A DNA stretch of 64,000 nucleotides, taken from assembly GCA_965178125.1 (NCBI GenBank), contig OZ237772.1, positions 186,001 through 250,000 of the forward strand, written 5' to 3'. The DNA comes from Bilabrum cf. latius (lineage: Eukaryota). Shown piece after piece: positions 20,746 to 64,000 of the stretch. The notes beneath the pieces are model-generated. The model had not been told where the DNA came from and did not search any database. It saw only the letters and a list, made by a program, of their open reading frames with translations. A program made the position numbers and the translations under genes. How positions within the stretch are numbered: position 1 is the first letter of the stretch; each line of letters opens with the position of its first letter.

Positions 20746-23700
20746 ATGGCGTCAACCCCAAGATCGTTGAGGGCTTAGGTCCGAAATGCTCAAAGCTCGA
20801 ATATAGGCAGCACTGGTAAGACTAGTTTTGTATGGTTTCGGTCATCAATCCAGTCCAGACAGTCACCTGTACGGCTTGGATTGAGTGCCTCTTCTGAACA
20901 CGGCCTGCTTTCGAAAATTAATAATGCGACCTACTATCAGCTTATCTGAAATAATGTTTGCCTCGATGTGGTATCGTATTTCGCCTTGTTGCAGCTTGCT
21001 GGTGGGGACCCTTCCGAACAACGTTGCGACCGGCGTCACCAGTCGATCGTATTCCTGCTTGCATTGCAATATATATCCATCGCAGGATTGCAATTCATGT
21101 GCGTCATTGCGTTTGCAGCTGCCATGTTCTTGGGTGGAATACTGATTGGACTTCTCGTCTTCGAATCCGGCGAAGCGCCTGGCGTTGCGTCGCCGGTCCC
21201 GGGTCTGCCTGGCCTACGGGGCATTCCAGACAGCAACAGAGCACTGAGCATGATGCCTTCCATAGTTCGTAACATCACATGCCGCGTCACGGGAGGCTGC
21301 ACCCAGCCGCTGGTCGCCGCTCCCCTCCCCGGGTAGAACAAGCTGCCGGGCAATGGAGTGCTCGCTCCAGGCGGCCTCGGCAAAGCAATTGCGCCGGGTC
21401 ACTCGCTCCTGGACCCGGACAACGCCGCAAAAGATGTGGTGGAGGGAACAGCCCCTAGCACCGATCAAGGGACAGAACCAGTGGGGGGTGCTGGCTTGCA
21501 GCAGCAGCCGCAGTAGCCGCAGCAGCCGCTCGCTGAGAAGGAGAAGCAGGCACCACCAGCGGGCGAGCAATCTGAGCCGGCCGCTACCGCTACTCAGACT
21601 CTCCCCGCAGAGCCCACGGACTGGCTGGAGTTCGACGGCGGCATGAACGTGGCGCTGCAGAGCAGCGGTGACCACGCAACCGTCACCGCGGGCGCCTGGA
21701 TTAAGATGAGCTCGGGCGGCAACTCCCAGATCCGGGTCATCATGGGAAACCGCAAGTCCGGCTGCGAGCTGAACGGCGACCACTAGGGCTACACGTTCCA
21801 CGTGAACCAGTGGGAGACTGGTGACAGAGACCTCCGGTTGGAGTGGACAGAGTCCGAGGGGCACTGCGGGGTGGCTGCGGCCGGGCCGGGGACGGTGCCT
21901 GTCGACCAATGGGTGCACGTGGCCTTCTCCATCCAGAACCCCGACACGGCGGCGGGCACCGAGGGTCGGGCCATGGTGTATCTCAACGGACAAATGGTGG
22001 GCAGCGCGGCGGTGTCCACCCGCCTGGTGCAGGAGGAGAGCTTCCTCACGCTGGGCTCCACAAACGACGCGCAGTACTACTTCGCGGGCAACATGGCCAA
22101 CGCGTTCGTCATGCCTCATGTTGCCACTCCCAAGCAACTGCAGGCCGTCATCAAGGCCACCACGCCTCAGGCATTCACCGACACAGCCAAGGCCGCCGCA
22201 GCACACAACCGCATGACGGTGGGCCTGCTGCTCCGAGGGATGGACATTCCCTGGGACAAGGCCAAGGGCGCGATGAACACGCTCACGGGCTGCCACGAGC
22301 TCACAGGGAACACAAAGATCATCTCCATCCGGAGCGAGAGGGGCAGCCCCTCGGGGCTCACAGACACGGAGACCCCAACGGACATAATCCACCCGTCCGA
22401 TCCTCCCAAAGACCCGTCCCTTGCTCTGCCCGAGCCCCCGAGAAAGCCGAGCTTCAAGGCGTACGGGGCATACAAGGGCGGCACCCGGAACCAGTGGGTG
22501 TCCCGGCTGATGAAGCTGGAGCAGTCCCGCGTGAAGGGTCCCTGGCAGGGTGCCTCTGCCGAGCTGCTTGCCAGCGGGGCTTTCTCCGACGAGGTCTCCG
22601 ATGAGGAGATGCGCGCCAGCGATGCCACCGGTGCCAAACGCGCCGACGAGATTCGCGACGCGATGCGGTTCGTTTGGAACGGGTACAGGAAGCACGCGTG
22701 GGGCGCAGACGAGCTCAAGCCAAGGTCAGGACAGGCCAACAACAACTGGGGCGGGATGGGATTCACGCTGATCGACACCCTCGACACCTTGTGGATCATG
22801 GGGCTGCACCGGGAATTCGCGGAGGCGCGCGAATGGGTCGCCACGAAGCTCTCCTTCGACAAGCACCGCAGCGTGTCCGTCTTTGAGACCACCATCCGCG
22901 CGCTGGGCGGTCTCCTCTCCGCCTACGACCTCTCAGGAGACCGCGTGTTCCTCGAGAAAGCGAAGGACCTCGCGGACCGCCTCATGCCCGCCTTCAACAC
23001 GCCCACGGGGATCCCTCACGGCCAGGTGAACCTCGAGTCGGGCCAGAGCAACAACTTCGGGTGGACCGGCTCCTCTAGTATCCTGGCGGAGCTTGGCACT
23101 CTCCAGGTGGAGTTCAGGTACCTGTCAAGGGCTCTTGGGATTCCAGAGTACGGCCGCAAGGCGGAGCACGTGATCGAGGTGCTGTCCCAGCACAAGGGGC
23201 AGTACGGCCTGTACCCCATCTATTTTAGCGCACAGACGGGCAAGCCGACCAACAGGCACGTGACATTCGGTGCCCTTGGCGACTCGTTCTACGAGTACCT
23301 CATTAAGGTGTGGGTGCAGGGGGGCAAGAAGGAGGGCATGTACAGGAGCATGTTCGACGCGTCCATGCAGGGCATGACGGAGCAGCTGCTGCAGGAGTCC
23401 TCGCCGAGCAAGCTGCAGTTCGTGGCCGACTGGAACGGGAATTCCGTCGTCCACAAGATGGACCACCTGGTCTGTTTCGTGCCTGGCATGCTGGCGCTCG
23501 GTGCCTTCTACGCTGAGGGCACGGCTGCTGAGGCCAACGTCCAAAGGGACTTGCAGAACGCCAAGCGTGTCATGTACACGTGCTGGCAGATGTACAATCG
23601 GCAGGCAACTGGTCTAAGCCCCGAGTACGTCCATTTCCAGGGCGGCAGGGACATCGTAGTGCCCGGCAACGCTCCCTTTTACATCCTCAGACCGGAGACC

Positions 23701-24102
23701 GCTGAGAGCCTCTTCATCATGCACCAGCTGACTGGCAACCCGATCTACAGAGAGTGGGGCTGGGAGATGTTCAAGTCAATCCGGAAGTTCTGCAAGACCA
23801 CCTATGGGTTTGGGGCCCATCCAGACGTGAGAGAGACGGGGCGACAGCCGGACGACAGGATGGAGTCTTTCTTCCTGGCTGAAACAATGAAGTACTTGTA
23901 CATGCTGCAGGCTCCCGACCACCCGATTTCTCTTGATGAGTACGTGTTCAACACGGAGGCGCATCCCCTGCGCTAGTTTCCCAAGTGGAGCGCGCCCTCG
24001 CCCAGAGGTTCCGGGGGTTCGGTGGCCGGATCAGTGCGGGAGGTGCGCGAGGCCGGTGGGCCCATGCGAGGGACGGATGGGCTTCCTGAGGAATCTGCTT
24101 GA
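20746..24102 (+). CDS. Type II membrane alpha-1,2-mannosidase (GH47) with a LamG/ConA-like domain before the catalytic domain
   Basis: Exon 1 is 20746-20815|GTAAG, with a phase-1 intron to CGCAG|21086. TM segment FMCVIAFAAAMFLGGILIGLLVF; LamG-like TVTAGAWIK...WVHVAFS...VYLNGQ. GH47 motifs WGADELKP, SVFETTIRALGGLLSAY, GALGDSFYEYL, LRPETAES, MESFFLAET and FNTEAHP. TAGs at 20776, 21334, 21514, 21784 and 23974; TGA at 24100. Confidence 0.92.
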
Positions 24103-24293
24103 TTTGAGTGTTAGAATATGTTGCGCTGGATCGTACCAAAACTCACTCGACACTGGCGAACCTGATCGGAACCCGACTGCGAACGTCGCTCGAAAATCAA
24201 GACTCATTTCGTTCGACCGACCACGTGCATATGGTCTGCATGAATGATGCATCTTATTGACACGAACCCTTGTATTCTCATAGATACTTGCAA

Positions 24294-27290
24294 ATGAACT
24301 GTCAATGGCTGGCAGTCTTTTTCAGCATTCTAGCTGGGGCTGGGGCCACGGTTCTTGTCACGAATTAGCCACACAGCTTACATTGGAGCTTCTGGTCCCC
24401 CAAAAATTCAACTAGGTTCCTGCCAGTACAGGCACATTTTCGGTGTCCCGCTGATGTACATGGCACTACGCCGCTACAAGTTGCTTGGAGGCTTGCGGAG
24501 CATTTTGGCACGGATTCGAGCCCCCTTCTTGGACAAATTGCAGGATACATAGTACAACATCCCACTGTACCAGTTGATGATGGGGGGAGGAGTGGGCCAA
24601 TTAAGGTTTAGGATCTAAGGTTGCTGAATCGGACTGCCCTCACGGTAGGCAGCATGTCGTCTCCGCGTGTGCTCAAGAGGCAGTGCAGGCTGGTTTCCGA
24701 AAATAGCTCAGCGATGATTCCATTCAACAAAAAGTTAGCGATCACACGGCAACCTGCCAATCACGGAGTAGGCCTGAAGCACGACGACGCCACGATCCCA
24801 CTGCCGAGGGAGTGCCCCTGGCTCAAATCGGCCGCTATCGGATTAATGCATTCCGATAGGGACGGCTAGCAGTGGGGTTGGCCTCATGCATTGGCTTTGA
24901 CACAGCCTACTGCGCATGTTCCCAAATGGGCATAGATCGCTGCTCTGTGGAAACCCTCGCTGCGCCATGAACACTCGAAGTTGGTTTCCATGGCGCACTT
25001 GCCAAGGTTTGCATCGCAAACAGATCAACCCCTGGCACGAAGGAGATACCGTACCCCCTATCGTATCCATGATGTTCTGTAGGTAAAAGTGACCACTAGC
25101 GGGAAGTTTGACTTTCATAAGGGCAGCCGCGAGGAGGCGTCACCGACTGGGGCATTCGCCTGGGAGTGGCTGCCGCTAGAAGCTGCCATTCGGTACCTGG
25201 CGGCAGCAGTCGGCGTGTAGGGGACCACCCATTTGTCTGCCGAGCAGGTTACTCAGCGATTGGCCGAGCTCTGCGAGCTGCAGACAGTACTGGCAGGGCA
25301 GCCGGGTAGAGTGAGAATTCGCAACGTGGAAGCTGCACTGCATGCAAGTGCGCGCCGGCTAGACCCTGCTGTGTGTGTCAGGATCCAGGTGGGACTCACC
25401 CACATGGGCATTCCCGGAGGGGAGCCCATGCCGGTCGCCCACGCAGTGCGGGTGCTTCCCGCTGGCAGTGCGCGCTAGAGGTGGAGCTCACTGGCACAGG
25501 CAGGGAGAGGGAAGGAGGGCAACATGCACGTGGATGCAATACACGACGCTGAGCACGACCCGAAGTGGTGGAGCGTTGCGCGGCCCATGCAGCATGCCGC
25601 CAGGGCAGTTGCATCCGTGTGCCTGGGCAGGGTGGTGCACCCCGATGACGTGGTGCTGGGGAAGCGGCCCGGCACTCAGGCGCACTATGCTGACGGCAGA
25701 GCGTCCGACCCGTCCACCGGGATACCCGCCCTTAGGGTAGTGAAGCCCACAGCAGCTGCAAAGAAGCGCACGTTTGGTGACGGCATGGACGACGAAGCAC
25801 TGTCCAGGGAACAAGAAATCGGCCAACATGAACTGCAAGCTGGCTTTCACCACGAGCATCGCAGTCCGCAATTGTCGAGCCCATTCTCGGCAATACACCA
25901 ATGTGATGCCGCATGGCAGGGGAAATGCAGCGATAGGACGAAGCTAGTGTACCGGACGGACGTAGTGACGATACCCTACCCGCTGCTGCCTGTGCGGTAC
26001 GGTGCATTGGCCTATCTTCAAACGCACGTGCCTGCTGCGCTTGCCACAGACGAGATGACCCAACAAGAAAGGTGTGTTCAGTCTGCTCAGATCCTGTGGG
26101 ACGGGCCTGACTCTGATACCATCCGGCTGCTCCGAGCTGGACTCACCACCAGCAATGGCCAGCGGGTGGTCAGTCCGGATACCGACCAGGATGAACCGAA
26201 TCTCGCGGCCTAGCTAGAGAGGGCCGCCCGATCGCTTGGACCCAAGGGATGGAAGGGGTTGTCAACGCACTGCAAACTCTTGCAAGGACAGTGGCGGGGC
26301 CCTGAGTGGTTTGACGGAACGGATGGTAAGAATATTTTCTTGTCCCAGCTGCAGACTGGGGCCGTGCTGGATCCCCGGCAGATTGTGAACGCATGTCTCG
26401 AAGATGGGCAAGCTGCCTTCGAGAGACTGAAGACCAGCGTCAGCTCGAGCGATCTGCAGTCGCTTGCCGTGACTCCTCTGTCCATGGCCAGGTCGCTGTG
26501 TTTCTGGATGGACAGCTGTGCACCCGGCAAGGACCCGGGGTGCCTCCGGGGGTTCCATCCGAGACCTATGCCGTTCCTGTCGCAGCAAGTGATGCAGCAG
26601 GACCTGTGGGTGGTGCAGATCGCGATGCAGGGCAAGAGGGGCGGGTTCTTCATCGAGGCGGGGGCAGTGGACGGCCGCATGCTCAGCACGACGTGGGCGC
26701 TGGAGAGAGGGTTTGGGTGGAGGGGGCTGCTGGTGGAGGCTCGCGGTGAGGAGCTGGAGGCGATGCGCGTGAGGAGGCCGAGGTCCACCTGCGTGTATGC
26801 GGCGCTTGGGGCGAAGGATGGTGGGTTTCTGGAGATGAGTGCCTCTGGGGATGATCCCACGGGCATGATGGCAGTGACGTCACAGGTTGACACGAGCGGT
26901 CTGGACCAGTCTGGGTGGCAAGGCCGCGGACGCGCTCCGATTCGCCGGCTGTCTTCGATTTTGGACGAGGTGGGTGCCCCTTCCAGGATCGATTTCCTGA
27001 CTCTGGACATCGAGGGTGGAGAGCTGGAGGTGCTGGACAACTTCCCATTCGACAGGTATTCGTTCGGGGCCATGGCCATCGAAACAAATGTGGAGGAGCC
27101 GAGGAGGTCGCAGATCCGGGGCGTGCTCGCGTCGCACGGGTACGTGTACGCCGGGGGTTTGGGTCTCGATGACGCGTACCTGCATCCTGATGTGGCAGCA
27201 GGTGTTCTTGAGGCACTGGAGGATCAGGCGAGGGCGAGGAGAGGCAGGGGGCGGCGTGTGGCATTCGGAGGGAGGGATATCGGGACGTGA
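24294..27290 (+). CDS. Secretory-pathway protein with C-terminal FkbM-type (Methyltransf_21-like) methyltransferase, paralog 1 (998 aa with TAG=Gln)
   Basis: One frame with no TAA/TGA from signal-like MNCQWLAVFFSILAGAGA to TGA. Motifs GFFIEAGAVDG, TWALERGFGWRGLLVEA and IDFLTLDIEGGELEVL. Confidence 0.85.
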
Positions 27291-27460
27291 ATGTAGCTAG
27301 CATCAACCTAAAAGACGGATCCGCGGAATGCCCGGCCGGCCAGAATCATGTTCCCACCCTAGATCCATGACTCTGTGAAGCGATCATAGATAAGGTTACG
27401 ATCCATGACAGCTAGCAGTGCTTGTCGTTCTCTGATAACCCATAAGGAATGACATTCATA

Positions 27461-27524: not shown

Positions 27525-27536
27525 AAGTCATGCTGC

Positions 27537-30500
27537 TTATTTCTGCCCGCGGTGATACATCACCCAGTCCTACTACTCCAAGCATGATAGCGCTGACAAC
27601 GCAGGGTGCGTTGCAATCTACTCTGCAAATGTAAGTTCCATCGCGGCCTGCTCCGAGTCGAGGTCGAGGGCGGCGCATACGGCACTCATGACGCCTTTCT
27701 TTGCACTCGGCTGGTAGCACGCTTCCACCCATGCAGCAGATGCGCCGTCGCCAGAGTTCCACATGATGAACTCGCTGTGATCTTGAAGGGCAAACCGCTG
27801 GGCGTCGAGCACGGCAGATGTGACAAGACGTCGATGCCACATCGCGCGAGCATCTGCGGCGGTGGCGAGGCTGGCTGGCATCGCAAATCGTGGCAACCGG
27901 TCACGAGCTGGTGCACCTCCGATCCCCAGCCTCCCGCCAGCAGAGTGTCCCGCGCAGCTTGGTAGGCGTGCTGCAGCTTCGAATGGCATCGCAGTCGCAA
28001 GGCTGGCCCAGCCATGCGCCGGCTTACCCTCGTGGTCCAAGACATTCTGCGTGTCTCCCATGGGCGAACCAACGTAAACCACAGACTCTCGATCGAATTC
28101 CACGGGCATTCGACAGCATATCCCTGCTGCTTCTTGCAGCAGGCTGCGATCGTCCGCAGAAAGCCCTCGAAGCAAGAAGTCGCCAGCAGCCTGCAACGAC
28201 TTCCCAGGCACGTTAGAGGATATATCCAGCAGGTGTGAAACAAGCCGCGCGGCCCTACTGCCAGGAGCGGTATACTGACCTGATGCCTGCAGCGGGTCTT
28301 CTGCGCCGGCTGCTGATACAAGCGAGGCCAGCACATTTTCCGAGGAAGTGATATGGCAATTGCACCGGTCCACCAGCGGGTTTTTATCTCCTGGCATTGG
28401 ACCCTTCTCCCCCGCATGGATGACCAATAACGCCGCGGCAACATCTCTGTATGGGCCAGCACTGGCCGAATGCGAAGAACGGATTCGAACAACCCCGCTC
28501 GTGCCATGCTTTGGCCTGCTTCCGCCCATTTCATCCGCTCCTGCCGAGAAACAAGCCCGCATCGTCCACGAAGGCTAGACTATTTCCGACATGAAGTGGC
28601 TCTTCAGCTGTGCTTGGATGCTCAGCAAGCGCCCCTCCTCCGCCTGCAGGCCCCTCTGCGAACCCTAGTCGCTCAACATCCACACTGGTGGGTCCTAGGC
28701 AGGCCCCCCCACGTGCTCTGCGGTCCAGCCGAGCTTGCGCAACACAGCCTCGCTCGACGCCGTCGAGAAAAAGACACTCTGGGAGCTGACTGCCTTGGCG
28801 TCCTGCGTTGTGACGAGTGCGCACTGGCCGTGAAGGGAGCAAAGGTGTGAACCAGCACCAACCACTCCTGACTAGTGTCTCCCGTCTGGAAGTAGAGATC
28901 CATCACCGGTCCTGGCCACCAGTTGCTCCCTGCACCCCTTCTCCTGCCCGCGGCCGCACCGTAGCAGCATGCTCGGATTTCCGTCATGCAGGATGATTCG
29001 GCCACCCATCTACGCTTCAGATTCGCCGGGCAGACTGGTGCCCGCACCGTCGTGCGGCACTACAACTGTCCTCCTGTCGACGTGCATGGCCCACGCAGCC
29101 ATGTCGGCGTAGGCTCCCGCCTTGGAGTGGTCCCCGTCGATGAACAGCAGGTCCACGGTTCCCTAGGGAACAACATGGGCGGCCCTCACAGAGTGCATCC
29201 TGAGCATGTACGCCTGGTGTCCGGATCCCGAGGCACCCACCATGCTGCGGTAGTTCATCAGGGTGTCGCTTCCACCGGGAATTGCCTTCTCGGAATTGAA
29301 TTCGAAGTCCATCCAAAGGTCAACGGATATAATTCGTGCCGCCCAGTTGCCTCTGCGACGAAGCGCCGCTAGCATGACCACCGCGCTGAGCCCCTACAGG
29401 CTTCCGATCTCCACGATGACCCCAGCGGGCGGCAGGAGACGGGCTCGCTGCGTGAGAGTGGTAACGTCCCCGCCGAGCAGGCTTCCAGTTGCGTTCCGCT
29501 GCAGAGCGTAATGTCTCACCCTTGCGTCGAGTGCAGACTCCAGCATTAGCCCGGTGTCGACTGATGATCTTGACTAGCCCCGGCACCAGTCGGATGGGGC
29601 TGCATTGCCTTGCAGTGCGTCCGCCTGGAACGTAGTGGGGTCTACAGCTGCAGCTTCGCTTTGCCACGGTCCCAGATCGGTAGCATCTGCTGGTATACCC
29701 CGGAGGGCGTAGGGGGCGCAGCCTGCACCCGGGTCTGATTCAAGGGAGTGGTGCTGCCCGGGCTACGCACCTGCCTACCGTGCAGTGCGCGCAGCGTCGG
29801 TGGGCGATCCGGCGACGCCAGGCAACGCCATGTATTTGCTCGCGTGATGCACGGCACAAGCTAGCGCAATGGGTAGCGATGCAGCCTTTGCTAGGCAATT
29901 CGCAGCGTCTGCAGCCCGCCGCAGATCCTTTGCAGTGGGCCTCGCGACGGGACTACCAGAGGCTTCCTGCATGCCGCTGCCGAGGCTGTTCATGGCCGGT
30001 GGGGCAGGGAACAAAATTTTACCTTGCCAAAGGGACTACATTGACTCGATATCGCCGTATGAATTCAGCGGGTGCTTGTGAGACGCATCCATGGACAGGG
30101 GATTACGGTGCTGCCGCGACCGGATTGTTGAAGAAGCTGCGACCGCTGCATCCGCCTGCTGCTCCCTTGTGGCATCCAGGGAAAGTGCGGCAGCCAAGGC
30201 GTCCAAATCGTAGAATTCATCTGTAGCTGATGATACGCACGGATCGATTGCACGGGGACCACGCATTACACGGTTCTCGATCGTGAACAGGTAGTGTTTG
30301 CCCCAGCCATCTTGAGCATGATTTTTGTCAGAATTCTATCCAGCCGCATCATGCAGAGCTGCCCTGGTCAAAGCAGATATAATGTCAACCACACAGGCGA
30401 ACCTTATTGAAGAATCAAGCTAGCCTCCCAATGTAGAGCCGTCATAAGCCACTCCAACGCTCCTCACAGGGTCGCTCTTTAGAAGCTTCGCCATAGAATG

Positions 30501-30554
30501 CGTTGTACTGGCCATCAAGACAACTGAGGCAAATACGCTGCAGTGCTATAGCAT
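27537..30554 (-). CDS. Secretory-pathway protein with a class I SAM methyltransferase domain (Methyltransf_24-like), about 1005 aa with TAG=Gln
   Basis: Signal-like ML*HCSVFASVVLMASTTHS. Motifs GVIVEIGSL*GLS, IISVDLW, VDLLFIDGDHS and GGRIILHD lie in one frame interrupted only by TAG; ends in TAA. Confidence 0.78.
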
Positions 30555-30822: not shown

Positions 30823-33300
30823 TCAGACCGGATCGATAGCTCCGGTCGCTACAGCCCACGTCACCTCCTCTGCCTAACCTGGCTGCTCGAACGGAGGCAA
30901 GTGGTTGTACCGTCCACGAGCTTTGTACTCCTCGATGCGACCCTAACAGTAACCTCTCAGGAACAGTGCCTGCCGCACCTCTCGTTCGCAGCTGCTGTTT
31001 CCATCGGATCGGGCCGGTAGCGGACCAAAGCCGTCTGCAGCCGCCACGCTGGTAACACAGTCTGACGGCGTATATTCGCCGTCTGGAAGCAAGGAGGCCG
31101 TATCTGCCTGAAATAGCTTCGGGACAAATGTCTGCTCCATTAGATGCAACATGCACGCACCGGTGTGGACGTCATCTGCAAACACGCTCGCTGGCCCCTC
31201 CGCTGCCCCGCTCCCCGCGATGGCAGCATGCAGCTCTCGTTGAAGGTGTGCGGATGGCCTGCCAAGCAAGTTTGTACTTCCGTTCGACCTGCAACCAGCT
31301 TGCGATCGTCCTGCGAATGCAGACCACTGCCGCACTGCCGGCGCAGGGTGCGTCACTAGCTTCACTCTGTGGATCATCAGCGTCTGCGCCAGATCCGTGC
31401 GTACCATCCACTTGCTCCGGATGGTTCGATCGAACCAATGAAGGCGCGATTTGTCGATCGGAGACGCGGTAAACAGTGGCCAATATCGATGCGGGAGCGC
31501 ATCTTTCTTCCACCACGCGAGATGACGCGCCTGCTATACACGCAGAGGCAAAGATGATCTCAAGGAGAGCTGTCGGTCTCGAGTGGCTGCCAATCCGTGC
31601 ATCCTGAAAGTGTCCACTGATAAAAGGGCTTGCCTCGGCATGCCGGCGAGCACAAATGGCTGATTCATCGCAGTGTACCCAACCTACCTCATGTCCTGAT
31701 ACATGGGAGCGCCAGGGTTCATCAAGAGGTCCTGGGGCGGGCATTGCTTGAACTGGCTTGCCACGACGGGCTTCAGCGACGCTACGGTGAAGCGATTCCA
31801 GAAGTAGATCGATCCGGGCAGCGGTTTGCCTTTTGCCACAGCATTTGAGTCCGCGTCCCGGATCAATCGATCGAAGGAAGTCACGTTGATGTACTCGTCC
31901 ACATCCATGTTGATCATCCACTCGGCCAAGGGCTTGCCGTACTTGAACAGGAAGTGCATCATCGAGTGCGGCTGGGCCTCGTGCTCGTACAGACCACTCT
32001 ATTCCAAATGGTGGTTGTACTTTCTGAAAGGCCACGACAGTTCCAGCACGGTTGGATTCTGCTGGTTAGAGACGTGCACGTGCTTCATACACTGTGAGGC
32101 TGTGCCGGGCCGTAGTCGCGGTGGCGCTGCACAAAGTCGCACGCTACTGCCAGGCTCAAAATCAGCCGTAGGATCCACCACCGTTTGGCGTGCATCGTCG
32201 AGCTGAATGCCCTCGCAGTAGAACTAGATTGCCTGCACGGTCAGGCAGGCGCCCTGCAGCCATTCGTCGTCGTTGCGGTAGGCAACCACGGCCTCCACGC
32301 CCCTATCAGCATGAAAAGCCGCCCACGATGCCATGTACTTTTCCTTGTCTTCCAGCAACATCATGGTCGTGGCCATCAGCCGATAGGGGCGGGGGTCCAC
32401 ACTCGTCATCTCCTCGACGTATGCCTCAGGCTGCGGCTGAGACTCTGGTTCGAGCGGAAGGCCTGATGCAGTCGGACCGCCAGAGTTTAGACGCTGATGC
32501 TACAGCCGAGGCCACAGACAGTACCATCCCGGGTGTGTAATGCATTCGATTGGTGCCTCGCATTGAGCGTTTTTGTCGAAAGCAAGAGCCGCCGGCGCAT
32601 CATTTTGCCTGCGCCGCAGATGCAGATGGCCTTGGACGGAACGCAGCTGACTGCCTAGCACGTCAGCATGCCAGATGCGGCGTATGTGTATGTCACCAGC
32701 ATACTCGATCGAAACGACCATGAACTAGTCGATACCAACGTCGTTTGGCAGTCTCCATCGATGGACATCCCATGCATTATGGGGGAACTGGTCCTTCGGC
32801 ATCGACGGGGAAATATCGCGGTGAAACAGCCGATGCCAACTAGATCCATTCCGTGACGACCGTACTCGTGCTTTTAGTTCTTCTACCCGAATGCTCATCC
32901 GCCTAAACTGCGGCACTACTGCGAAAAGCTGCCGATCTCTAGCAAAAACATCGTAGAAAACCCATCGTCGTCCCGCGTTTGGAGGCTCCATACCCGAAAA
33001 ATTCTCGTTTGTATGTTTCTACAAATCAGCTCCAAGCTTCCAAGCGCAACTGGCAAGGGGTGCGCCGACCGGCCCGTCAACTTGCTCGTCATCTAGAGCT
33101 CCACCAAATGCATCGGATTGCTTACACAGCATTGCCGGCTGCACTCTGTGATATGGGTGGCCTGATTGTTGTAGTACTGCTGGCCACCCGCTTAGATGAT
33201 GATTGGCATCGGCTGCATCAGATAGGTCACTGATCAACCCACGAGCGGCATCGAGCTTTACAATGACTGCAACAACAATCGAGCACAGCACCCCTGCCAT
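30823..33300 (-). CDS. Glycosyltransferase, GT92/GT2-like GT-A fold
   Basis: Seven same-frame track ORFs joined through TAG. Signal-like MAGVLCSIVVAVIVKLDAARG (alternative ATG at 33327). Motifs YMASWAAFHADRGVEAVVAYRND, WPF and AQPHSMMHFL...EWMINMDVDEY (DxD); ends in TGA. Confidence 0.75.
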
Positions 33301-33583
33301 GCCATAGTCCTGGTGACATAGTATCATTGCAAGTACGTGAATGCCAATACTGCGAGATTTCTTTCAATACAAACGAGTGAAAGGAATAACAGAACTAGTG
33401 CACATGTGGCATTGAGAAAGAGAACCAATGCGAATCGCCCACCCGTAGCCTTTGAGAGGCGTTCGTCGTTCGCTGGATTCATGCCCATTGCTTGCGAACC
33501 CAAACATGAATCGCGGCTACTATCGTAGGCCTTTAGTGTGGTATTCATGGTGTACACTAGCGTTGAGGGGCTGGAAGCAGGAT

Positions 33584-51935: not shown

Positions 51936-54887
51936 ATGGTATTCCTGGCTGTCTTGGCAGTAGCCCAGCCTCTAGACCGTGGGAGATTCGGGACCTCCAG
52001 AAACACGATAATTTCATCTTTGGCGGATGCCATCTACGAGTCAAACCATGAACCAAGCCAAAGCGTGCGCAGAACACCGCGCCAACTGAGCCAGCCGACA
52101 TCTGTAGGGACAGTTGCGTCATCTTTCCATGTCTCAGAGGCACAGGAGACATTTCCAGATTATGAAGATACTGGAGGGAACTTCGGGAAATCCTTGGCAC
52201 ACCTGGGTGACCTTGACGGCGATGGCTCGGCAGATATAGCAGTGGGCTCTGATGGACCCAAAGCTGCATTCGGCGCCACGACTGGGGCCGTGTGGATCCT
52301 TTTCCTTGACGCGAACGCCACAATTAAGTCATTGTAGGAGATATCAGATGCGCAGGGTGGCTTCACTGGGACACTTGGGAGTGGTGACTAGTTTGGGAAA
52401 TCCTTGGCAGCTATTGGAGACTTGAGCGGCGATGGCACGCCTGACCTGGCAGTCGGAGCAACCGGTGACGATGATGGGGGAGTCCGAGGTGGGGCTGTAT
52501 GGATTCTCTTTCTGGCATCAAACGGCAAGGTTAAGTCGCACCAGAAAATTTCGCACACCTAGGGCAGCTTCACCGGATTTCTTTACGGTTTCGATCTGTT
52601 CGGAACTGCCGTGGCTGATTTGGGTGACATTGACGAAGATGGCACAACCGACATTGCAGTGGGAGCAGTTGGTGATGACGATGGTGGTTTCAACCGCGGG
52701 GCCGTTTGGATCCTTTTCCTGAACACAGATGGCACTGTGGACTCGCATCAGAAGATATCTAGCAGGCTAAGGGGATTCACGGGGTCGCTGGGTGACAGTG
52801 ATGCCTTCGGGAACTCCTTGACATCTCTTGGCGATCTGAACGCCGACGGCACGAACGACCTTGCCGTAGGTGCATACAGGGACGATGACGGAGGGTCTGA
52901 CTGCGGGGCCATCTGGATCGTTTTCTTGGACACAGATGGCACTGACAAGTCCAGCCAGAAGATTTCGCACACGGTAGGTGGCTTCACTGGGACATTGAGC
53001 AGCGGCGACGAATTTGGCTTTGCCTCTGCGGCCATCGGCGACCTGGATAGAGATGGAGTGACCGATCTGGCCATTGGAGCTAGAAACGACGACGACGGTG
53101 GTTCCAACCGTGGGGCTGTATGGATTCTCTTTCTGGCCACAAACGGCATGGTCAAGAGTCACCAGAAAATATCTGACACCAACGGTAGTTTTAGTGGACC
53201 TCTGGACAACAGCTTCAAGTTCGGGAATACGATTGCAACTTTGGATGACATCGATGGAGACGGGAACTTTGACATGGCGGTCGGTGGGGGCGGCAGTCGT
53301 GCCCCGTGGATTATTGAGCTGGTTGCAGCAAGCCCGTCACCTACTCCCAGTGTGAGCGCCACGCCAACTGCGTCGCCAACCTCCAGTGTGACCAGTAGCC
53401 CAAGCAACAGCCCAACCCCGAGCAACTCGCCTACAAGCAGCATTACACCATCGCCAAGCTCCACCAGCACCAGTACCGCCTCAGCAACGGCCAGCTCCAC
53501 CAGTACCTGCAGCGCCACTCCCACGGCCAGCATTACAAGCACGAGTAGTGCCACGCCAACTCCGTCAACAACAAGCACCAGCAGTGCCACACCATCGCCC
53601 ACGGCCAGCATCACCAGCACCACCAGCGCCACACCATCGCCAAGCTCCACCAGCACCAGTACCGCCTCAGCAACGGCCAGCTCCACCAGTACTTGCAGCG
53701 CCACTCCCACGGCCAGCATTACAAGCACGAGTAGTGCCACGCCAACTCCGTCAACAACAAGCACCAGCAGTGCCACACCATCGCCCACGGCCAGCATCAC
53801 CAGCACCACCAGCGCCACACCATCGCCAAGCTCCACCAGCACCAGTACCGCCTCAGCAACGGCCAGCTCCACCAGTACTTACAGCGCCACTCCCACGGCC
53901 AGCATTACAAGCACGAGTAGTGCCACGCCAACTCCGTCAACAACAAGCACCAGCAGTGCCACACCCAGCGTTTCTCCTACTCCGACAAGCAGCATATCGT
54001 CGGCTCCAAGTGCTGGTCCGTCCTGCAGCGACGGCGTTTAGAATGGAGAGGAGAGCGACATCGACTGCGGGGATCCATCCGATGACCAGTGTTCTCTGTG
54101 CCAGCAGGGACGGACGTGCACTGCCTCGATCAACTGTCTGGACGGTTTTGATGGCCTTGTTTGCGATAGCGCCACCATGAGATGCTCGGTGTAGGTGCTG
54201 TCGGCTGGCAGGGCGATCAGCGTGACAGGCACAAGGATCTACGGAGTCTCGGCATTCGTGTTTCAAGACAGCCTGCAGACGCCGCTTATCGACGGATTGG
54301 TTGACGTAGGTGGTGCGGATCAGGCGCTTGTGACTCGCGTTGATGAGTTGCAAAGTGCGGAGACCGGCCGGCGGCTGCAAGACGCTGGTCGCGCCACCGC
54401 TGCACCGGGTGTTGAGATAGACGTGAGCATCATCATTCCATTAGATCGCTAGGACGAGCTGCAGACGACGCAAGGCATCCTTGGCTTCCTCGATGGCACC
54501 CGTACGGACTCGAGTGGACAAACCCTTCAATCTCGTCTGCTTGCCTAGGCTCCTTCCAGTGGGCTGACCATATCGATCGAAAACGTGCAGGTGTCGACTG
54601 AAGTGAGGCAGCAGGACGTGCAAGTCTAGGGAATTATGCCGAGCGAGTCCGGAGGTGCAGATGGCGACGGCGGTGCAGGTGGGCTGAGCTCTGGTGCGCT
54701 TGCTGTCATCATCGTCGTGGGTGCCGTTGCATTGGTCGGGTCTGCAGGTGCATACTACGTATTTTGCAGACGCGACAAGGAGGCGGGCGAAGAGTCGCTA
54801 GTAGAGAAAAGTGACGGTGAGCAAGTCGCCAGCACCGAAGTGCGCGCAGCGTGTTCCGTGCAGCCAGCCGCCGGGGAGCTCGTTTGA
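51936..54887 (+). CDS. Type I membrane protein: FG-GAP (integrin-alpha-like beta-propeller) repeats, Ser/Thr/Pro stalk, Cys-rich motif and TM helix
   Basis: Six FG.S/A...GDLD.DG..D.AVG repeats (five followed by GAVWILFL-like segments); STP-rich stalk; CSDGV*NGEESDIDCG; TM GALAVIIVVGAVALVGSAGAYYVF. One frame with eight TAGs, ending in TGA. Exact start uncertain. Confidence 0.88.
53445..53965 (+). repeat. 186-bp coding tandem repeat (about 2.8 copies, 62-aa mucin-like unit)
   Basis: ACACCATCGCCAAGCTCCACC... recurs at 53445, 53631 and 53817. Confidence 0.9.
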
Positions 54888-55355: not shown

Positions 55356-57356
55356 TCAGTCCTCGATGGACTCCTCGCTACCGCCCTTCGCAGTCCCTTG
55401 GTCGCCCCCGCCCTCGCCCTCGCCAGCGGCACCCCCCGCTGACTTGCCCTTGCTCACATCGATCCCGTCGTCCTCTTCAGCCTCCTCTTCCTCCTCCTCC
55501 TGCTGCCCAGTGCCCTCGCCCTCCGGGCCGGGACCCTCCTCCTGCACCCGCTCGGGCACCATGTCCTCTTCACGAAGGCCGTACCTCTCTGGCTCCTGCC
55601 CTGCCCCGTGCGCGTGCGAGTGCCCGTGCCTGTCCCGGCTCTCCCCCGATGCACCACAGCATACGATAACGAGGAATGCCAGCACGGTCAATGCAACAGC
55701 CCCTGACACGGCTGCCACGAGTGGGTTCCGCTGGACTACCTTGATGCTCTTCTAGACCACCCACTGCAGCTTGCTCATCACGGAGTCGTCCATCAGCAGA
55801 GCGTCGAGCTCCTTGTCCGCTGCGTCTTCAGCCGCCTTTTTCTTTGCGTCTGCATCTGCTTTGATGGCCGCTTCTTGTGCCTCGTGCCTGTGCTTCCACT
55901 CCTCGATGGCAAACTCGTTGGCTTCTTCCTCGTCGGTGCCAATGTACACGTTATCGAAAGCCAGATCGTCCGTGTGGGCAATCACCTCCAGGATCACCCC
56001 CGTCACCTTAAGGGCCTTGGCGACGTCACCCGCCACAGGCTTGTAATGGTCAGGGTTGGGGATCTCCCTCGGCTTCCACTCGCCCTTGTATTCGGGGTTG
56101 TCAATCATCTTGGGAGTCCATTCTCCATCGAAATCGGGGTTGGGAACGAGAGGTGCCTCCCACTCACCGTCCTCCTCGTCGTCCCAGTCTTCCGGCTTGG
56201 AGGCCTCAGGATCCGGCATCTGCGCCTCGTCCACCCAGTCCTCGGGCTTCTAGTCTTCGGGGTCAGGGATTTTGGCCTCGTCCACCCAGTCCTGCGGCTT
56301 GGTGTCCTCTGGATCCGGAATCGTTTTGGGCGGCTCGAAAGGAGGGTCGAAGGCGCCATCGTCGTGAAGGCTCCCTTCGTTCACAGTCTCTCCGTTGACA
56401 GACACCTTGAAGGTGTCGTCGGGTCTTATCACCAGCTGGAATAGCTGCGAGCTGGCGGCCTGGTTCCACACGGCCTTGCCCCCCGCGGGCTGTACCATGT
56501 GGTGTTCCCTGACCTCTTTCGATTCCGGGTTGCGGTGCCTCACGATGAAGTGGACCTTGTTGGTGCCCGCGCACTTGTCGGGCCCGAACATGACGCTGTA
56601 CAGCTCCGGTTTGCTTAGGTCTGTGGAGGGGCCCAGGGTCAGCGGCTCCGAGTCCTCATCGCTCTCTTCATCTTCATCGTTCTGTTGCTCCTTGGGCACC
56701 CCTGCGACCTTCAGGTAGCCGCCGCCGCACCCGACCGGCTGCTGGGCCCTGATTTCGTACTGCAGGACGAATGGCTTGCCGTCTGCTCCCGGCGTGAGCT
56801 CTTGAGGCTCGCCTTCTTCCTCACCCAGCATGCGTGCGAGAGCGAATCGGCCTCCAGACGTGAATGTAAGCATGCGCTCCCCCTCGTACCCTCCCGTGAG
56901 GGCGGTCGGCTTCTTGGCCTCCAGTCTGGACTTTTGCTTCTTGGCTTCGCCGCGCGTCGACAAAATCCAATTCTGCAAGGTTTTTCATGTTAGGACGCAT
57001 ATTGGGAAAATGAGACGACACTAGTGCGTGTTCGCCACCTGGATGAGGTGGCAGAGTATTTCAGCGGGATACACGTGGACCGCGACCACGTACCACGCGG
57101 AACGAGCAACCATAAGTGTTCATCTCACGTCGAAATTCTCCTGGAAGGTTTCCAACATGACTGCAGAGGCAGGCCTTGCGGCAACCGAGTACTCAATCGT
57201 TTCGGGCTCCTCATTCTCTGCCTCTGGATCTTGCACATCCTCATCCAGGCTTCCATCAGCGTTCACTTCAGCGGACTCGAATTCTTCCGCATCATCGGCC
57301 GCTCGAGTACCATAGATAAGACACAGTGATAGCACCAATGCAGCTACGGTTCGCAT
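55356..57356 (-). CDS. CANX: Calnexin
   Basis: Exon 1 is 57356-57129 with a signal peptide, then an intron to 56972. Motifs CGGGYLK and YSVMFGPDKC; P-domain repeats IPDPED.KPEDW and GEW.P..I.NP; TM helix and acidic tail. In-frame TAGs at 56252-56250 and 55754-55752; TGA stop. Confidence 0.95.
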
Positions 57357-57529: not shown

Positions 57530-60076
57530 ATGCCCATCATTAGTGTGGCACGAGACGAGCTGATGCGAAGGCTCCAGGCCGATATGAGCTAGGATGAATT
57601 CGAGCACTTGTGCTTCTCGTTCGGGATCGAGCTGGATGACGTCCTCACGGAGGAGGAAGAAGCGAAGCGCGCTGCAGCTGACATGACGGAAGCAGAAGGG
57701 ACTGGTGAAGAGGAGTCTAAGGCTGCAGAAGCAGCGGACCCTGCGGCATCGGGCGAGGCGGCCGCCGCAACCTCTGCCGGATCTGACAAGCTAGTTTACC
57801 GCATTGAGGTTCCCGCCAACCGATACGACATTCTTAGCCTGGAAGGTCTTGTTCGTGCACTGAACATTTTCCGCGGCGTCGAGTCCATGCCGGTGAGGAT
57901 GCGAAGGCTCATGCTGCAGGTGCATCGTCCCACTCCCTACAGGGTGCCCTACTGCGCTCAATCAGCGGCATTTGCATGACGATCCAGCTCCGTTACACAT
58001 CTCTTTCAAATTTCATCAGATTTTAAGGCGCCGCAGAAGTACAAGCTCGCCGACCTGGGCGACCGCCCGATGCTGTCGATCAAGGTAGGCAGGGAGACAG
58101 CCGCCATCCGGCCGTTCGTAGTCTGCGCTGTCCTCCGGAACGTAAAGCTGGACGCTATTAGCCTCAAGAGCTTCATCACGCTGCAGGACAAGCTCCACTT
58201 CAACATATGCAGAAGACGGACGCTGGTCGCAATCGGGACCCACGACCTGGACACGATCCAAGGCCCCTTCCGGTACGATGCCAAGGAACCAAAGGACATC
58301 GAATTCGTGCCCCTTTCCCATTCCGAGTCGTACACCGCGGACAAGCTGCTGGAGCACTTCGAGACGGACCCCGAGGTCAAGCACATCAAGCCCTACGTCC
58401 CCATCATCAAGGATGCCCCCAGATACCCCGTGATCACCGACTCCACCGGCCGCGTCCTGTCTTTGCCCCCCATCATCAACGGAGACCACAGCAAGAACAC
58501 CATCGATACGCGCAACATCTTTATCGAGTGCACGGCCACGGATCTCGCCAAGGCCAACACCGTGCTCAACACGATCGTGTGCACGTACAGCCAGTACTGC
58601 ACGGAGCCCTTCGTCGTGGAGCCAGTCAGGGTCGAGTACGAGGACGAGTCTTTCCACGCTCCCTACGTAACACCCGATCTGAGCTATCGCCCGATGCGCG
58701 TGTCCATCGATGATGCGTGCAGCATGGCAGGGGCGGAGTTCACTCGAGAACAAGCCGCGGAATTTGCGACCAAGATGGGCCTGGACGCGAAGGTGCTGCC
58801 CACAGACGAAGACGCGGCAGCGAGCGTGACGCCTGAGGAGGAGGAGGGGGCCGCGGGAATCAAGAGTACCCGCGGCTGGATCCTGTGCTCCGTGCCCCCG
58901 ACCCGCAGTGACGTCATTCATGCGTGTGACGTACACGAGGATCTGGCGATCGCGTACGGCTACAACAAGATCGTCCCAAGGATTCCCGCGACTGCCACCG
59001 TGGGCGCGGGCCAGCCCGTTAACCTCCTGTCCGACCTGCTGCGGCACGAGATCGCCTATGCGGGCTACGAAGAAGTTCTCACGATGGCCCTGTGCTCTAG
59101 AGCCGACAACTACACCAGGGTGGGCCACGAAGATGACGGCAAGGCGGTGGGGATCGCCAACCCAAAGACCAAGGACTTTCAGATCGTCAGGACGAGGCTG
59201 CTCCCAGGGCTGCTCATGACCCTCCGGGAGAACAAATCCGCCAGGGGACTCGGAATCACAAGCGGGGTCAGGCTCTTCGAGATCTCCGACGTGTGCGAGA
59301 CGAGTGAATCGGCAGACGCCGACACGGGTGCCATCAACCGAAGGGAGCTCGCCGCCCTGTACGCCGGCCCTACCGCCGGCTTCGAGGTGGTGAGGGGTCT
59401 GTTGGACACGGTCATGACGGCTCTAGAGGTGCAGTACACCCCTGGGGCAAAGAGCGCGGAAGCGGCTGCAGCTGTGGCGGCTGAGGCTGGGGCTGGTACC
59501 AGCCCCGCACCCGCCGCAGAGTATTTGCTCAAAGAGTACGCCGCTGCTTGCGCCAAGGCGGCCGAGGCATGGGCAAGGAAGCAGGCGGGCGATGATGAGG
59601 ACGAGGAGGACGATGCGGGCGAGGACGAGGACGAGGCGACAGGCGATGAGGGGGAGGCGAGAGCACTCCGTGAGGCTGGTTTGCTGGCTGCCGATCCTTC
59701 GCGCCTGGCTGGTCGCGGCGGACTGAGGTACTACATTGTGGAGGGGCGGGATCCGACGTATTTCCCCGGGCGGTGCGGCCTCATCGTGGTGGAGAGGTGT
59801 GACGAGGGCAGCGTGGCGTAGGGTGCGCCCGTGGTGCTGGAGCGCAGGGTGCTTGGCAGGTTCGGGATCGTTCACCCCAAGGTATTCCACAACTTTGACC
59901 TGAACGAGTACCCTGGGTCCGGGCTGGAGCTGGACATCGACCAGTTCGTGCGCTGGCACGGGCTAGAGGCCGCAGAGGCGTCGGAAGGGGCCGGGTCCGG
60001 TGGCAGCGCCTCGGGCAGTGGGGAGGGGGCAGCAGAGAAGAGGGCAGACCCCTCGAGTGGCGCTGGTGGGGACTGA
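57530..60076 (+). CDS. FARSB: Phenylalanyl-tRNA synthetase beta subunit (cytosolic type)
   Basis: MPIISVARD...S*DEFEHLCFSFGIELDD, YRIEVPANRYDILSLEGL, LQDKLHFNICRRRTLVAIGTHDLD, VLSLPPIINGDHSK, VPPTRSDVIHACD and FGIVHP. Intron 57893-58036; TAGs at 57590 and 59819; TGA stop. Confidence 0.96.
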
Positions 60077-60332
60077 GTGCAGTCGAATTGAGGACCGGGA
60101 CGGTTTCACTTTGATTGATCTCAGATTGTAATAATTGCGATCCTCGATATCCTGCTCATACCACAAACCTCCGCATCCGAAATGGATCCTGATTCCGGAT
60201 GGTTTGATCAAGATCGTTGGCAAAACAATCCCAGTAACACTCTGAGCACGAGGACAGAGAACATCGAAGAACGATGCACCATGCACGGATGCGCCAAGCA
60301 CCATTCAAGGCCGTCCCCATAGGCAAGTGGAC

Positions 60333-62791
60333 TTAGTAAGCGTGCTACGCTGCGGGCCCCCGCCCGACCCAGTCGAGAGGCACGGCAGACACGTAGTCCA
60401 CGCTGACGGCACCACCGTTGGCAGCCACACCGAACGCGCCAGACCGCGGGGCGTCGGAAATGTCCACCTCGATGCGCGGCGCCAGCGGCACGATCTTGGT
60501 TCCGTAGCCGGGCACGATGTCGGGGAACTGCGGGTTTGCGAAAACGCGCACCTTGGTGCCGTCCAGCTCTGCGCGCACGAGGTTCCAGCCGTCCGAGATG
60601 ACGCCTGCGCTGGTCTTGTTGCCCATGTCGAACGACCCAACCGTCTTGCGGTTGCCGTCGGCAGTTGCGACCTGGAGATTGACCACCTGTGTCGCGCTGT
60701 TGAGGGTCACCACCAGCCCGGACTCGAATTTAGTTCCCTGCCGGATGCCGCTGCCCACACCGATGCCCTGCTTGTCGGCGGTGCGGTCGGCCACGATAGG
60801 AAGATGCAGGTGCGTTCCAGCCGCCGTGGCAGTATTGGTGTGTACCTCAGCCGAGGAACAAGCCGTGGCCTGCGCAACATCGGACGATGACGTGCTCGCA
60901 CGCACCCACAGTTCCGCAGTCGTGCTTCCGTTGACCCACAAAGACGCCTCTACCACACCGTCGCCGACCTCGATGGGGCTAGCGGCGGCTTTGGCCACCT
61001 TGTCGGCCTCGTAAATCGGAGCACCGGGGCCCTCCTCCACGGGGTTCCAGCGCCGCAGTGCGCTGCACCTTGGCTCGGGGGCCAGATCGGGGAGCGCCGC
61101 CCACGCCTCGCCTTCGGGCAGATAGAGCCAGATGTCGTCAGTAAGCCATGAATCGCCCGTCGGTTCCGGCAAGAAGGCGTCCACAAAGATGGGGCTAGCG
61201 CCTGGTGCGTCATCGACGAATCCAGGCGAACCTTCGCCCACGTTGTTCCGCACCCATGCCCGGATGGCACATGCCTCTGTGTATGAGACGGGCTCCCCGT
61301 TGGGCCAGATGGTCCCGTCCCATGGAATGGCCGGCTCCGGGTCCCCTGGTTTGGCCCTCCACTGCCAGCGGGTGTTCGAGTTGCCGACCATGACCTCCCA
61401 GTTCAGCATGACCCCAGGTACCTGTAGCTCGGGGTTGGCCTTGGCCTGGGCGGCCTGGCCGAACATGAAGTGCATCACGGTGATGACGGAGCCGTAGTCC
61501 TTCTGGCCCTGGTACCACCGCGACCCTGCCTCTGTGACGAGTGCGCCCTTGGCCGGTGCCGCGTGGATCGAGGTGTTCCACGCGGGGAAATCCGTTGAAT
61601 ACTGGTGGTAGTTAACCACGTCTGTGGCGCTGTTGTCGCTCCAGCACGAGGCGACCTGCAATGCAATGCAATGGGTGGATAAGGATACGAGAGGTGAGCT
61701 TGCCATTGAGTGAGGAGACCATTGCCGAGAGGTGCCATGATGCCACACCGCCGACAAATAAATCGAACCATGCAAAGAATGTGGACACACCAGACCTAGA
61801 CTACAGCGAAAGGCAGTGCAGCGCAATGCTGTGCACTCACCATTGCTTTGGGGTACATTTCATCGACCCACTGCCGGGACAGGGCTCGCAGCTGGCACGA
61901 CGAGAACTCGCTGCCCTTGGGGTTCGGCTGGTTGCTGTGCGGCTCGTTGTAGATGCCGATCCACTGAACTCGGGTGTCGTTCCCGTAGCGCCCTGCAACG
62001 CCCTGCACGTACGGCTTGAAAGCCTCGTACGGGCCCTGTCGCTGGGGCATCTACGGACTCGTGAACCAGCAGCCTGCGGTGTGACGAGTGAATGGCAGGG
62101 GTGGTATGTTGTGACGAGTGCGTGGACGCTTCCCATCCCATCAGACTGCAAGAAACGCCAGTCTGGTGGGATGCAGCGATGCAGCGCGTCGCTTTTCAGG
62201 AAGCGCGCGCTGGCTATGACCCCAGAGCAGATGATGATAGTCTACACGCGCACATGCATCCAACGTTTTTTTTATAAATTCCCTCTCACCGTTGTGGTAG
62301 CCGTTTTCAGGCTTGCATGGGTGTGTCAGATTGCCGGTTGCCTCGCCCAGCTCCGTGTGCCGGTGGCAGTCATCGTAGAGAACAAGACCCACCTTAATGC
62401 CGTACTGGCTCGCGATCTCGATGGTCTTGTCGGTGGCCGCAAACAGGGTCTTCCCTTCGTCTTTGCGGAAGATGTGCGAGTGCAGAAAGAGCCGGATGGT
62501 GTTGTAGCCCAGGACCTTTGAGGCGGCCGACAGGTCGGAATGTACCTGGTCCCAGAACTGGTCAGGATACGCAAGCCAGGCGTTACCTCCCGCTAAGGAA
62601 GGAGTGTATTCGGCTCCAAACCACTGATGGGTGTCGTAAGGAGCTCCTGTTGGGGGGCGAGGAGTGTCGGCGCAGTTGGATCCTCCAACCGTTGCGGTCT
62701 CGTACGGGAACCTCCCGTCGGTGGCAGCCGTGTAATGCGCGGCGAATCCAATCAGTCCAATGCATGCGATTGCGTGCTTCACAGACTTCAT
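60333..62791 (-). CDS. Secreted clan GH-A (GH5-like) glycoside hydrolase with a C-terminal beta-sandwich domain
   Basis: Signal peptide; GYNTIRLFLH; acid/base motif GIYNEP; NYHQY; candidate nucleophile LVTEAG. Introns 62289-62074 and 61840-61656; TAGs at 62053 and 60347; TAA at 60335-60333. Confidence 0.8.
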
Positions 62792-63281
62792 GATATATTC
62801 GAAAGAGACTGCTGCAGTCGACACTGCGAAGAAAGCAACGTTGAACGGGGGCGTGTTAGAGCCGAACTTTGCCAGCCAAATATACTAAAAGTAGTATGCG
62901 AGACTCGCTGCAACACATGTCAAGCTACAAGTAGAGGAGCTTTACAGGCCACCAAATATTGCAGCAACCAAACCGATATGGCGCTGCATGCTCTATCGCA
63001 CCAGTCGTACGCAGGTACTAGGTGGTAAGAGAATGCTCGTTGCCCAACAATGAATGCCTCACAGTCTAATTATGCGAACCAGGTGCTATGTGCGACCCTC
63101 GCTGGTTGTGCTGAGCAAGAAATGCATTTTGCGCCCAGTTGCACTAGGCCTACGGCTTCCGGCTTCGCTGCCATCGACGCGCCGACACATTTAACGAACT
63201 TTCTGGCGGCCATTGGCATTGCAAGGCAATCCTGCTTAATTATCACAGTCTTTCTCGTGGTCTAGCGGGCATCGATTGGCA

Positions 63282-64000
63282 ATGCGATCGAAGAAGAGCG
63301 CCCGAGAGCTCGAGTCAGATGGATCCGCACTTCAAGGCTCCATCAACCAGGGTGCAGGATGCCCTCCCTGCTCCCCAGCCAGAATCATTGTTGATATCGA
63401 TGAACCATAGGGTCTGTCGAAGATGGGGTTCGGGGAGGCCATCGCGGACGACTACTAGAGACGGTGTGTTCACTTCGTGTCCGACTACTGGGGTTCGGAC
63501 GTGTGGACAGGGCTGACGGCATCGAGTACCATCACTATATTTCTAGCAACATTTGCGTCTACTGTTGCGCTGAGCGAGCTCGCGCGGTAGACTTGCGGGC
63601 AGTACATTGGGGCCACTGAGTACCTGCTGCTCAACAGCGTGGCTGGTATTATCCATTCAATTTTTGGGTGCCAGCCGTTCCTAGTGCTTCGTCCCACCGG
63701 ACCGATCACTTCGTTTATTCAGGAGATCTACAAGCTCTCCCTGCAGCTGGGCGTTTCGTTCCTGCCGTTCATGAGCTGGATCGGGCTCTTTGTGGGAATC
63801 TACATGTTGCTCGTTGCCGTGTTTGGGGGCTCCCACTACATCACATACTTGACGCGATTCGGTCACGACATGTTTGCTTTTTTTGTGTGCACGATATACA
63901 TCGTGGACGGCGTGCAGAACACGGCGAACCGCTTCGCCGTCGACCCGTTCGCAGAGGCTCTGTTCGAGCTGCTCATCTTTTTGCTCGTCGTGGCACTTGC
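63282..64000 (+). CDS. SLC4/BOR1 family bicarbonate/borate transporter, 5' part
   Basis: FGEAIADDY*RRCVHFVSDY, SIFGCQPFLVLRPTGPI, FMSWIGLF and YITYLTRFGHDMFAFFVCTIYI match SLC4 TM-domain motifs; in-frame TAGs at 63456 and 63588; runs off the window end. Confidence 0.88.

Follow-up and report, generated by a model that had tools for sequence, protein, structure and literature searches.

We analysed 64,000 nucleotides of contig OZ237772.1 (positions 186,001 to 250,000 of the forward strand; this whole stretch is called the window, its first letter being position 1). Genes of the window that are expressed and spliced use UAG as a sense codon, and the nuclear code of the organism from which the DNA comes (the host) very probably reads UAG as glutamine, with UAA and UGA as stops, as in NCBI table 15. 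The genes modelled from 20746 onwards are given below, with Pfam in brackets where the name comes from a Pfam match:

21097..24102, plus strand: LamG domain and glycoside hydrolase family 47 (GH47) alpha-1,2-mannosidase (Pfam); four TAG (21334, 21514, 21784, 23974); ends in TGA.
24294..27290, plus strand: FkbM-domain gene A (Pfam), paralog of 36214-39207; eight TAG; ends in TGA.
27537..30515, minus strand: Methyltransf_24 gene (Pfam); 16 TAG; ends in TAA.
30823..33300, minus strand: GT2-like gene (weak Pfam match below the cut-off); nine TAG; ends in TGA.
33416..35656, plus strand: GT61 reading frame (Pfam), start uncertain; two TAG, counted from 33587; ends in TGA.
36214..39207, minus strand: FkbM-domain gene B (Pfam); nine TAG, three of them common to gene A; ends in TGA.
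42300..45930, plus strand: ankyrin-repeat gene A, multi-exon, limits approximate; TAG 43614, 43620 and 44515 opposite CAG in gene B; ends in TGA.
46600..50489, plus strand: ankyrin-repeat gene B (Pfam), multi-exon, limits approximate; TAG 47835; ends in TAA.
51936..54887, plus strand: FG-GAP repeat membrane protein (Pfam); eight TAG; 3' part under an RNA-type contig; ends in TGA.
55356..57356, minus strand: calnexin (Pfam); intron 56973-57128; TAG 56252 and 55754; ends in TGA.
57530..60076, plus strand: phenylalanyl-tRNA synthetase beta, FARSB (Pfam); intron 57892-58035; TAG 57590 and 59819; ends in TGA.
60333..62791, minus strand: glycoside-hydrolase-like gene, so labelled by appearance, without a Pfam match in either of the two scanned exons; introns 61654-61838 and 62073-62288; TAG 62053 and 60347; ends in TAA.
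63423..64000, plus strand: 5' part of an SLC4/BOR-type transporter (Pfam); TAG 63456 and 63588.

An earlier note on this DNA had named 12 TAG codons, and all 12 were found in place and in frame (56252, 55754 and 37425 being the first bases of minus-strand codons). The 16 coding segments, 11,505 codons in total, contain 84 TAG, 328 CAG and 124 CAA but no TAA or TGA, so that TAG is a minor codon (16% of the glutamine-type codons). Since the segments are bounded by TAA or TGA, the zero counts of these two are partly built in, and the length of open reading frames (ORFs) under different codes was therefore used as an independent test. When all six frames were read with the tandem arrays masked, two ORFs of at least 550 codons were obtained with the standard code, 14 with TAG as sense (two of which are shadows on the strand opposite to FARSB and GH47), two with TAA as sense, four with TGA as sense, and 15 with both TAA and TAG as sense. 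All three triplets are common in the non-coding part of the window, at 10.6, 13.6 and 18.0 per 1000, and the GC content of the window is 59%. The proposal of the earlier note that TAG interrupts genes which are otherwise intact and free of internal TAA and TGA is thus borne out by the codon counts and the ORF lengths.

The region 54000-62000 is present in seven sequencing runs from three studies, and contigs of four of the eight listed runs were aligned to 54000-64000. The DNA run X1 spans this region unspliced; as a possible source of the window it was left out of the count. No run is recorded as RNA, and X5, X6 (both from one study) and X7 (from another) were taken as RNA by intron skipping, as GT..AG introns retained in X1 are absent there. 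Five such introns, of 144-239 nt, are shown by the spliced contigs, five in X5 and X6 and two in X7. The 13 modelled TAG sites of 54000-64000 are all covered by X5, 12 of them on listed pieces without a single other letter, whereas the coverage of TAG 62053 is deduced from a bridging contig whose middle piece is not listed; X6 and X7 each cover four of the 13 (in calnexin and FARSB). No letter change is listed at any TAG in the contigs of X5, X6 and X7, although contigs hide rare variants and minor editing is possible. The confirmation in RNA that the earlier note had called for is provided by these spliced contigs from two studies, which retain the TAGs of housekeeping genes in frame.

As judged from paralogs, motifs and homologs, glutamine is a well-supported best reading of UAG, coming first, on a small sample, in both the pairwise and the homolog-column scores. 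Two paralog swaps claimed before, CAG 43309/TAG 47835 in the ankyrin genes (within a stretch of 99% identity) and CAG 26079/TAG 37425 in the FkbM genes, were recovered, and a third, TAG 44515/CAG 49113, holds as the fifth CAG pair, aligned by eye. We also found the swaps 43614/48218 and 43620/48224 between TAG and CAG in the ankyrin paralogs and one TAG/CAA swap, 39015/24477, in a weaker alignment. Where the local identity of the paralogs reached 0.6 or more and a single copy had TAG, the other copy had CAG in four cases out of four; three further columns have TAG in both copies. The run at 21514 reads CAG CAG CAG CCG CAG TAG CCG CAG CAG, as had been claimed. The FG-GAP repeat columns are led by glutamine as described: in column 52335 it occupies 190 of 244 aligned rows (arginine 9), with CAG in the gene's four later repeats, and column 52560 holds 119 Gln, 121 Glu and 6 Arg among 522. 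The CxDGxQNG motif at 54039 is likewise Gln-led (28 Gln, 21 Lys and 3 Arg among 79 distinct prokaryotic motifs, excluding 14 that match the Gln-containing seed; the motif is present in 41 of 71 loci), and at calnexin 55754 both close orthologs have glutamine. A pairwise likelihood, derived from the substitutions that these alignments themselves contain and restricted to gap-free columns with identity of at least 0.35, gave -64 bits for Gln, -78 for Lys and -80 for Arg over 16 sites. The column method returned the correct residue for 58 of the 60 sense codons scored. The enrichment of glutamine within four residues was 1.29 near TAG and 1.31 near Gln codons, the parallel enrichment holding at four window sizes, and the TAGs of calnexin and the FG-GAP protein lie before membrane helices. 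A position-specific neighbour classifier was dropped after failing its own controls, and Pfam scoring with TAG as Q, R, K, E or L separated Leu alone from the polar residues.

Several results weigh against this reading and are those on which a different assignment would rest, namely that UAG is sense but encodes another residue, arginine in the first place, then lysine or glutamate, or a mixture of glutamine and arginine. The best partner was Gln at six of the 16 sites, Arg at five, and Trp, Thr, Asp, Glu and Val at one each, whereas CAG and CAA codons pair with arginine in ~2-4% of cases (two higher identity bins); the excess of arginine at TAG is unexplained. In eight homolog columns, which overlap the 16 pairwise sites, Gln scored 6.3 and Arg 1.3 bits, a thin margin; in another column score TAG reached 2.6 over seven columns against 19.1 for CAA over six. 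Arginine outscores glutamine in columns 21784, 23974 and 52389, the SLC4 column is Arg/Lys, and Pfam scoring ranked Lys above Gln by 1.6 and 0.5 bits in the SLC4 and Methyltransf_24 domains. Sites 56252, 57590, 59819 and 23974 sit in homolog columns that are not Gln: at FARSB 59819 the 96% identical relative P0002 has Arg and P0001 has Ser, and no Gln was found in the 77 and 113 aligned rows of columns 23974 and 56252. Moreover, TAG/CAG is also the commonest nonsense mutation, which weakens the paralog swaps. Against another residue, however, glutamine is ahead by 14-16 bits in the pairs and by 5 bits in the columns, lysine is never the partner at these sites, alignments of identity below 0.45 account for three of the five Arg partners, and a CUA anticodon is one base away from tRNA-Gln(CUG). 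Hence we give another residue, or a mixture, a slim chance. The clean glutamine reading of the earlier note stands in that Gln ranks first, but not in its cleanness, with arginine as the runner-up and several of the cited sites in non-Gln columns. TAG seems to collect at fast-changing polar sites, as its share of glutamine-type codons is lower in six genes with high GC at third codon positions (GC3; 12/135, 8.9%) than elsewhere (75/411, 18.2%).

The expectation that genes end in TGA or TAA held for 15 frames (TGA 10, TAA 5), none of which could by construction end in TAG. The TGA of FARSB lies at the same position as the end of P0002, and both FkbM paralogs share the same TGA end. A mild excess of TAG was seen in the last 50 codons (11 of 82 against 5.2 expected, p ~0.015), which again speaks against a uniform glutamine meaning, and TAG 60347, which stands four codons ahead of a TAA, may be a terminator, although no TAG is shown to end a gene of the window. 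This would suit a context-dependent UAG, glutamine inside genes and stop near mRNA 3' ends, like UAA in Blastocrithidia. However, in 13 of 14 genes the tail past the last TAG has a coding score, whereas the in-frame stretches downstream are negative in 12 of 14; homologs retain the Phe that follows TAG 23974, indicating that the frame runs on; and the shared end of FARSB and P0002 and the RNA-type contigs, which extend ~60-260 nt beyond the stops, argue in the same direction. The excess could come from former UAG stops turned sense, with genes extended to the next stop, as it could from a dual meaning. We regard the context-dependent meaning as very unlikely, if the least improbable of the alternatives. 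The ordinary table 6, in which UAA and UAG both encode glutamine and UAA would be very rare, is more unlikely again. Two of the five TAA ends have a TGA within three codons, and in a Ngaro-type element of the window ORF2 follows the TAA of ORF1 in frame; but internal TAA was found 0 times in the window genes, against ~36 expected from a usage equal to that of TAG, and TAA as an extra sense codon gains only one long ORF. In addition, the next in-frame stop after TAA 60333 (60158) lies beyond the end of an RNA-type contig at 60200, a weak hint, and a table-6-like calnexin from a metagenome (L011) has TAA and TAG in frame, unlike the window.

The least probable account is that the TAGs are sequencing errors, nonsense mutations of pseudogenes or sites edited to CAG in mRNA. 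The change from CAG to TAG is a frequent transition, so that paralog swaps taken alone are compatible with decay, and contigs drop rare variants. Yet errors or editing are very improbable, because the same TAGs stand in the spliced RNA-type contigs of two studies that do not include the run from which the window probably comes. TAG is also common to diverged paralogs, and no matching TAA or TGA nonsense codons or frameshifts occur in frames of 1000 codons. By the spliced contigs, the shared paralog TAGs and the open frames, this account is largely refuted, and UAG read as glutamine, with UAA and UGA as stops, is the explanation we retain.

The host is probably a stramenopile outside the ochrophytes and oomycetes, as its protein relationships suggest. 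The named matches of FARSB were diatoms, brown algae, oomycetes, Triparma, Cantina and one bee protein, and those of GH47 were ochrophytes and one oomycete; calnexin matches were mostly fungal, with 27-40% identity. In the FARSB tree (27 rows, 26 fetched homologs) the window grouped with P0121 (100/100) inside an environmental clade of 14 rows (95/92), separate from the named ochrophytes and oomycetes, and a quick tree of 55 rows agreed. In the GH47 tree (34 rows) the window fell in an environmental clade of 21 rows with a support of 98 in the Shimodaira-Hasegawa-like approximate likelihood ratio test (SH-aLRT). Cantina stood outside the environmental clade, on a long branch. Both trees were rooted at the midpoint and included no ciliate and no outgroup from beyond the stramenopiles. 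No ciliate occurred among the named ones of the top 120 matches of FARSB, calnexin and GH47, most matches carrying no name; this favours the earlier view that the host is not a ciliate. In five GH47 relatives, 31-49 Gln each are found and no stop, which suggests that the relatives around the host lineage use the standard code. Full-length relatives are, however, a biased sample, as TAG-using ones would appear truncated in the database, and this too counts against our reading. P0002 starts late, just after the Gln at 58592, which may reflect a TAG in that relative, but we did not count it as evidence. A metagenome scan with FARSB found no relative, and one with the calnexin alignment returned 80 loci, none close (best 46% identical). 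Two metagenome calnexins, L067 (65% GC) and L002 (42% GC), have one in-frame TAG each and no TAA or TGA in a frame that is otherwise open, and represent either errors or other UAG-reading eukaryotes. In L011 (303-1049) the in-frame TAA is at the repeat position matching 56252 of the window.

The earlier note had stated that UAG as glutamine on its own is known for very few lineages, and the literature names Iotanema and three ciliates, Protocruzia, Hartmannula and Trochilia, for it (PMC11687900, PMC5304391, PMC9161772). Iotanema spirale (Panek et al. 2017, PMC5304391; PMC9161772) is, like the host, a non-ciliate eukaryote with UAG as glutamine and UAA as stop, but it is a fornicate, whereas the named FARSB and GH47 matches of the host are stramenopiles except for one bee protein. 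Hartmannula sinica, Trochilia petrani and Protocruzia tuzeti (McGowan et al. 2024, PMC11687900) share UAG as glutamine with UAA and UGA as stops; these ciliates stop mainly at UAA and least often at UGA, whereas the window has 59% GC and TGA ends 10 of 15 frames, and 58-70% of their UAGs are at conserved Gln positions, but few are here. UAG was also reassigned alone, to Leu, in the rhizarian exLh and in ciliate metagenome-assembled genomes (MAGs) from TARA, and to Ser in Scotinosphaera; both residues score far below Gln in the window, and these codes were rejected. Table 6 shares UAG as glutamine but differs by the in-frame TAA which the window genes lack. Code-15 crAss-like phages (PMC9523058) have the same codon table with a bacterial release-factor system, in contrast to the spliced eukaryotic nuclear genome described here.

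In the mechanism we propose, UAG would be read as glutamine at all positions, and UGA, as the main stop, and UAA would terminate. A copy of tRNA-Gln(CUG) may have changed to a CUA anticodon, which would pair with UAG and not UAA, and eRF1 may have lost recognition of UAG while keeping UAA and UGA (both by analogy with known cases, PMC11687900, PMC5304391); the eRF1 of Iotanema carries T32G (PMC5304391). UAG is rarer in the conserved high-GC3 genes and would lie mostly where constraint is weak, which is what a codon of recent origin or slower decoding should show. No tRNA gene was detected in the 64-kb window with ARAGORN and Rfam, and the eRF1 gene is not in it.

We know of no stramenopile with a nuclear code reassignment. 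None of a stop codon was found in the accessible parts of the open-access literature (including PMC12153298, PMC10553269 and bioRxiv 10.64898/2026.07.28.741278), most subscription papers and supplements being outside this scope. The change of UAG probably arose independently in the host lineage, since the host is likely to be a stramenopile from outside the ochrophytes and oomycetes, with GH47 relatives that seem to use the standard code. We lean slightly towards an unreported, independent and fairly recent reassignment of UAG alone to glutamine in a GC-rich stramenopile lineage outside these two groups, which would be the first nuclear stop-codon reassignment found in the supergroup and the second code with only UAG as glutamine outside ciliates. 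It would have arisen in a lineage that stops mainly at UGA, in which UAG cannot have been removed by AT pressure, and relatives with the standard code would be available for comparison. Of the independent, undescribed reassignment proposed earlier, the lineage is thus probably new and independent, but the code itself is known (table 15). The novelty depends on the placement among environmental relatives and on the open-access negative; the lineage could already be recorded in a taxon table of a supplement or a database code label.

Upstream of these genes, beyond the range of the main finding, lies one further element:

9637..17253, plus strand: Ngaro-type tyrosine-recombinase retrotransposon.

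It is inserted in an 88-bp satellite and contains nine TAGs in ORF1, seven across two ORF2 pieces and one in the recombinase, with repeats A at 9637-9810 and 16375-16548 and B at 16221-16374 and 17100-17253. The TAA between ORF1 and ORF2 is a possible readthrough site, and the reverse transcriptase changes frame at eight consecutive T (13779-13786). The layout A1-ORFs-B1-A2-B2 is described for Ngaro in Cafeteria (PMC8547959), so it fits a bicosoecid-like host, but it is no marker. The recombinase had no match in viral contigs.

As to the other features, five long single-frame genes resembling methyl- or glycosyltransferases lie side by side (24294-39207), and the FkbM genes are inverted duplicates whose last 2.2 kb are 91% identical while their starts have diverged. 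Database proteins match the FG-GAP repeats at 35-62% identity, and those with a name come from Planctomycetaceae MAGs. The cysteine motif of this protein is common to myxobacteria, Patescibacteria and archaea; a transfer from a prokaryote to the host is possible. A search with the cysteine motif gave one weak plasmid match, and an exon of the glycoside-hydrolase-like gene had no match in prokaryote genomes. At the convergent gene pairs 54887-55356 and 60076-60333 the gaps between the ends of the RNA-type contigs of X5 are only 22 and 55 nt. Tandem arrays of 55, 88, 88 and 18 bp occupy 4326-5936, 6273-9636, 17255-19906 and 39653-40935, and ankyrin gene A has ~37 GAG codons at 43066-43175. The exon at 2-856 on the minus strand, which we take to belong to a choline-transporter-like protein (no Pfam match), has a GC3 of 0.81 and 16 Gln codons, none of them TAG.

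Few eukaryotes are known in which UAG and UAA have separate meanings, and such codes raise the question of how eRF1 and tRNAs discriminate between the two codons (PMC5304391, PMC9161772). A new origin at 59% GC with UGA as the main stop would not fit codon loss by AT pressure and would point to competition between a suppressor tRNA and eRF1. The tRNA, the changes in eRF1 and the extension of old UAG ends are open to direct test, as there are a long assembly, RNA data from two or more studies and closely related database sequences. Gene calling with the standard code breaks most genes of the lineage.

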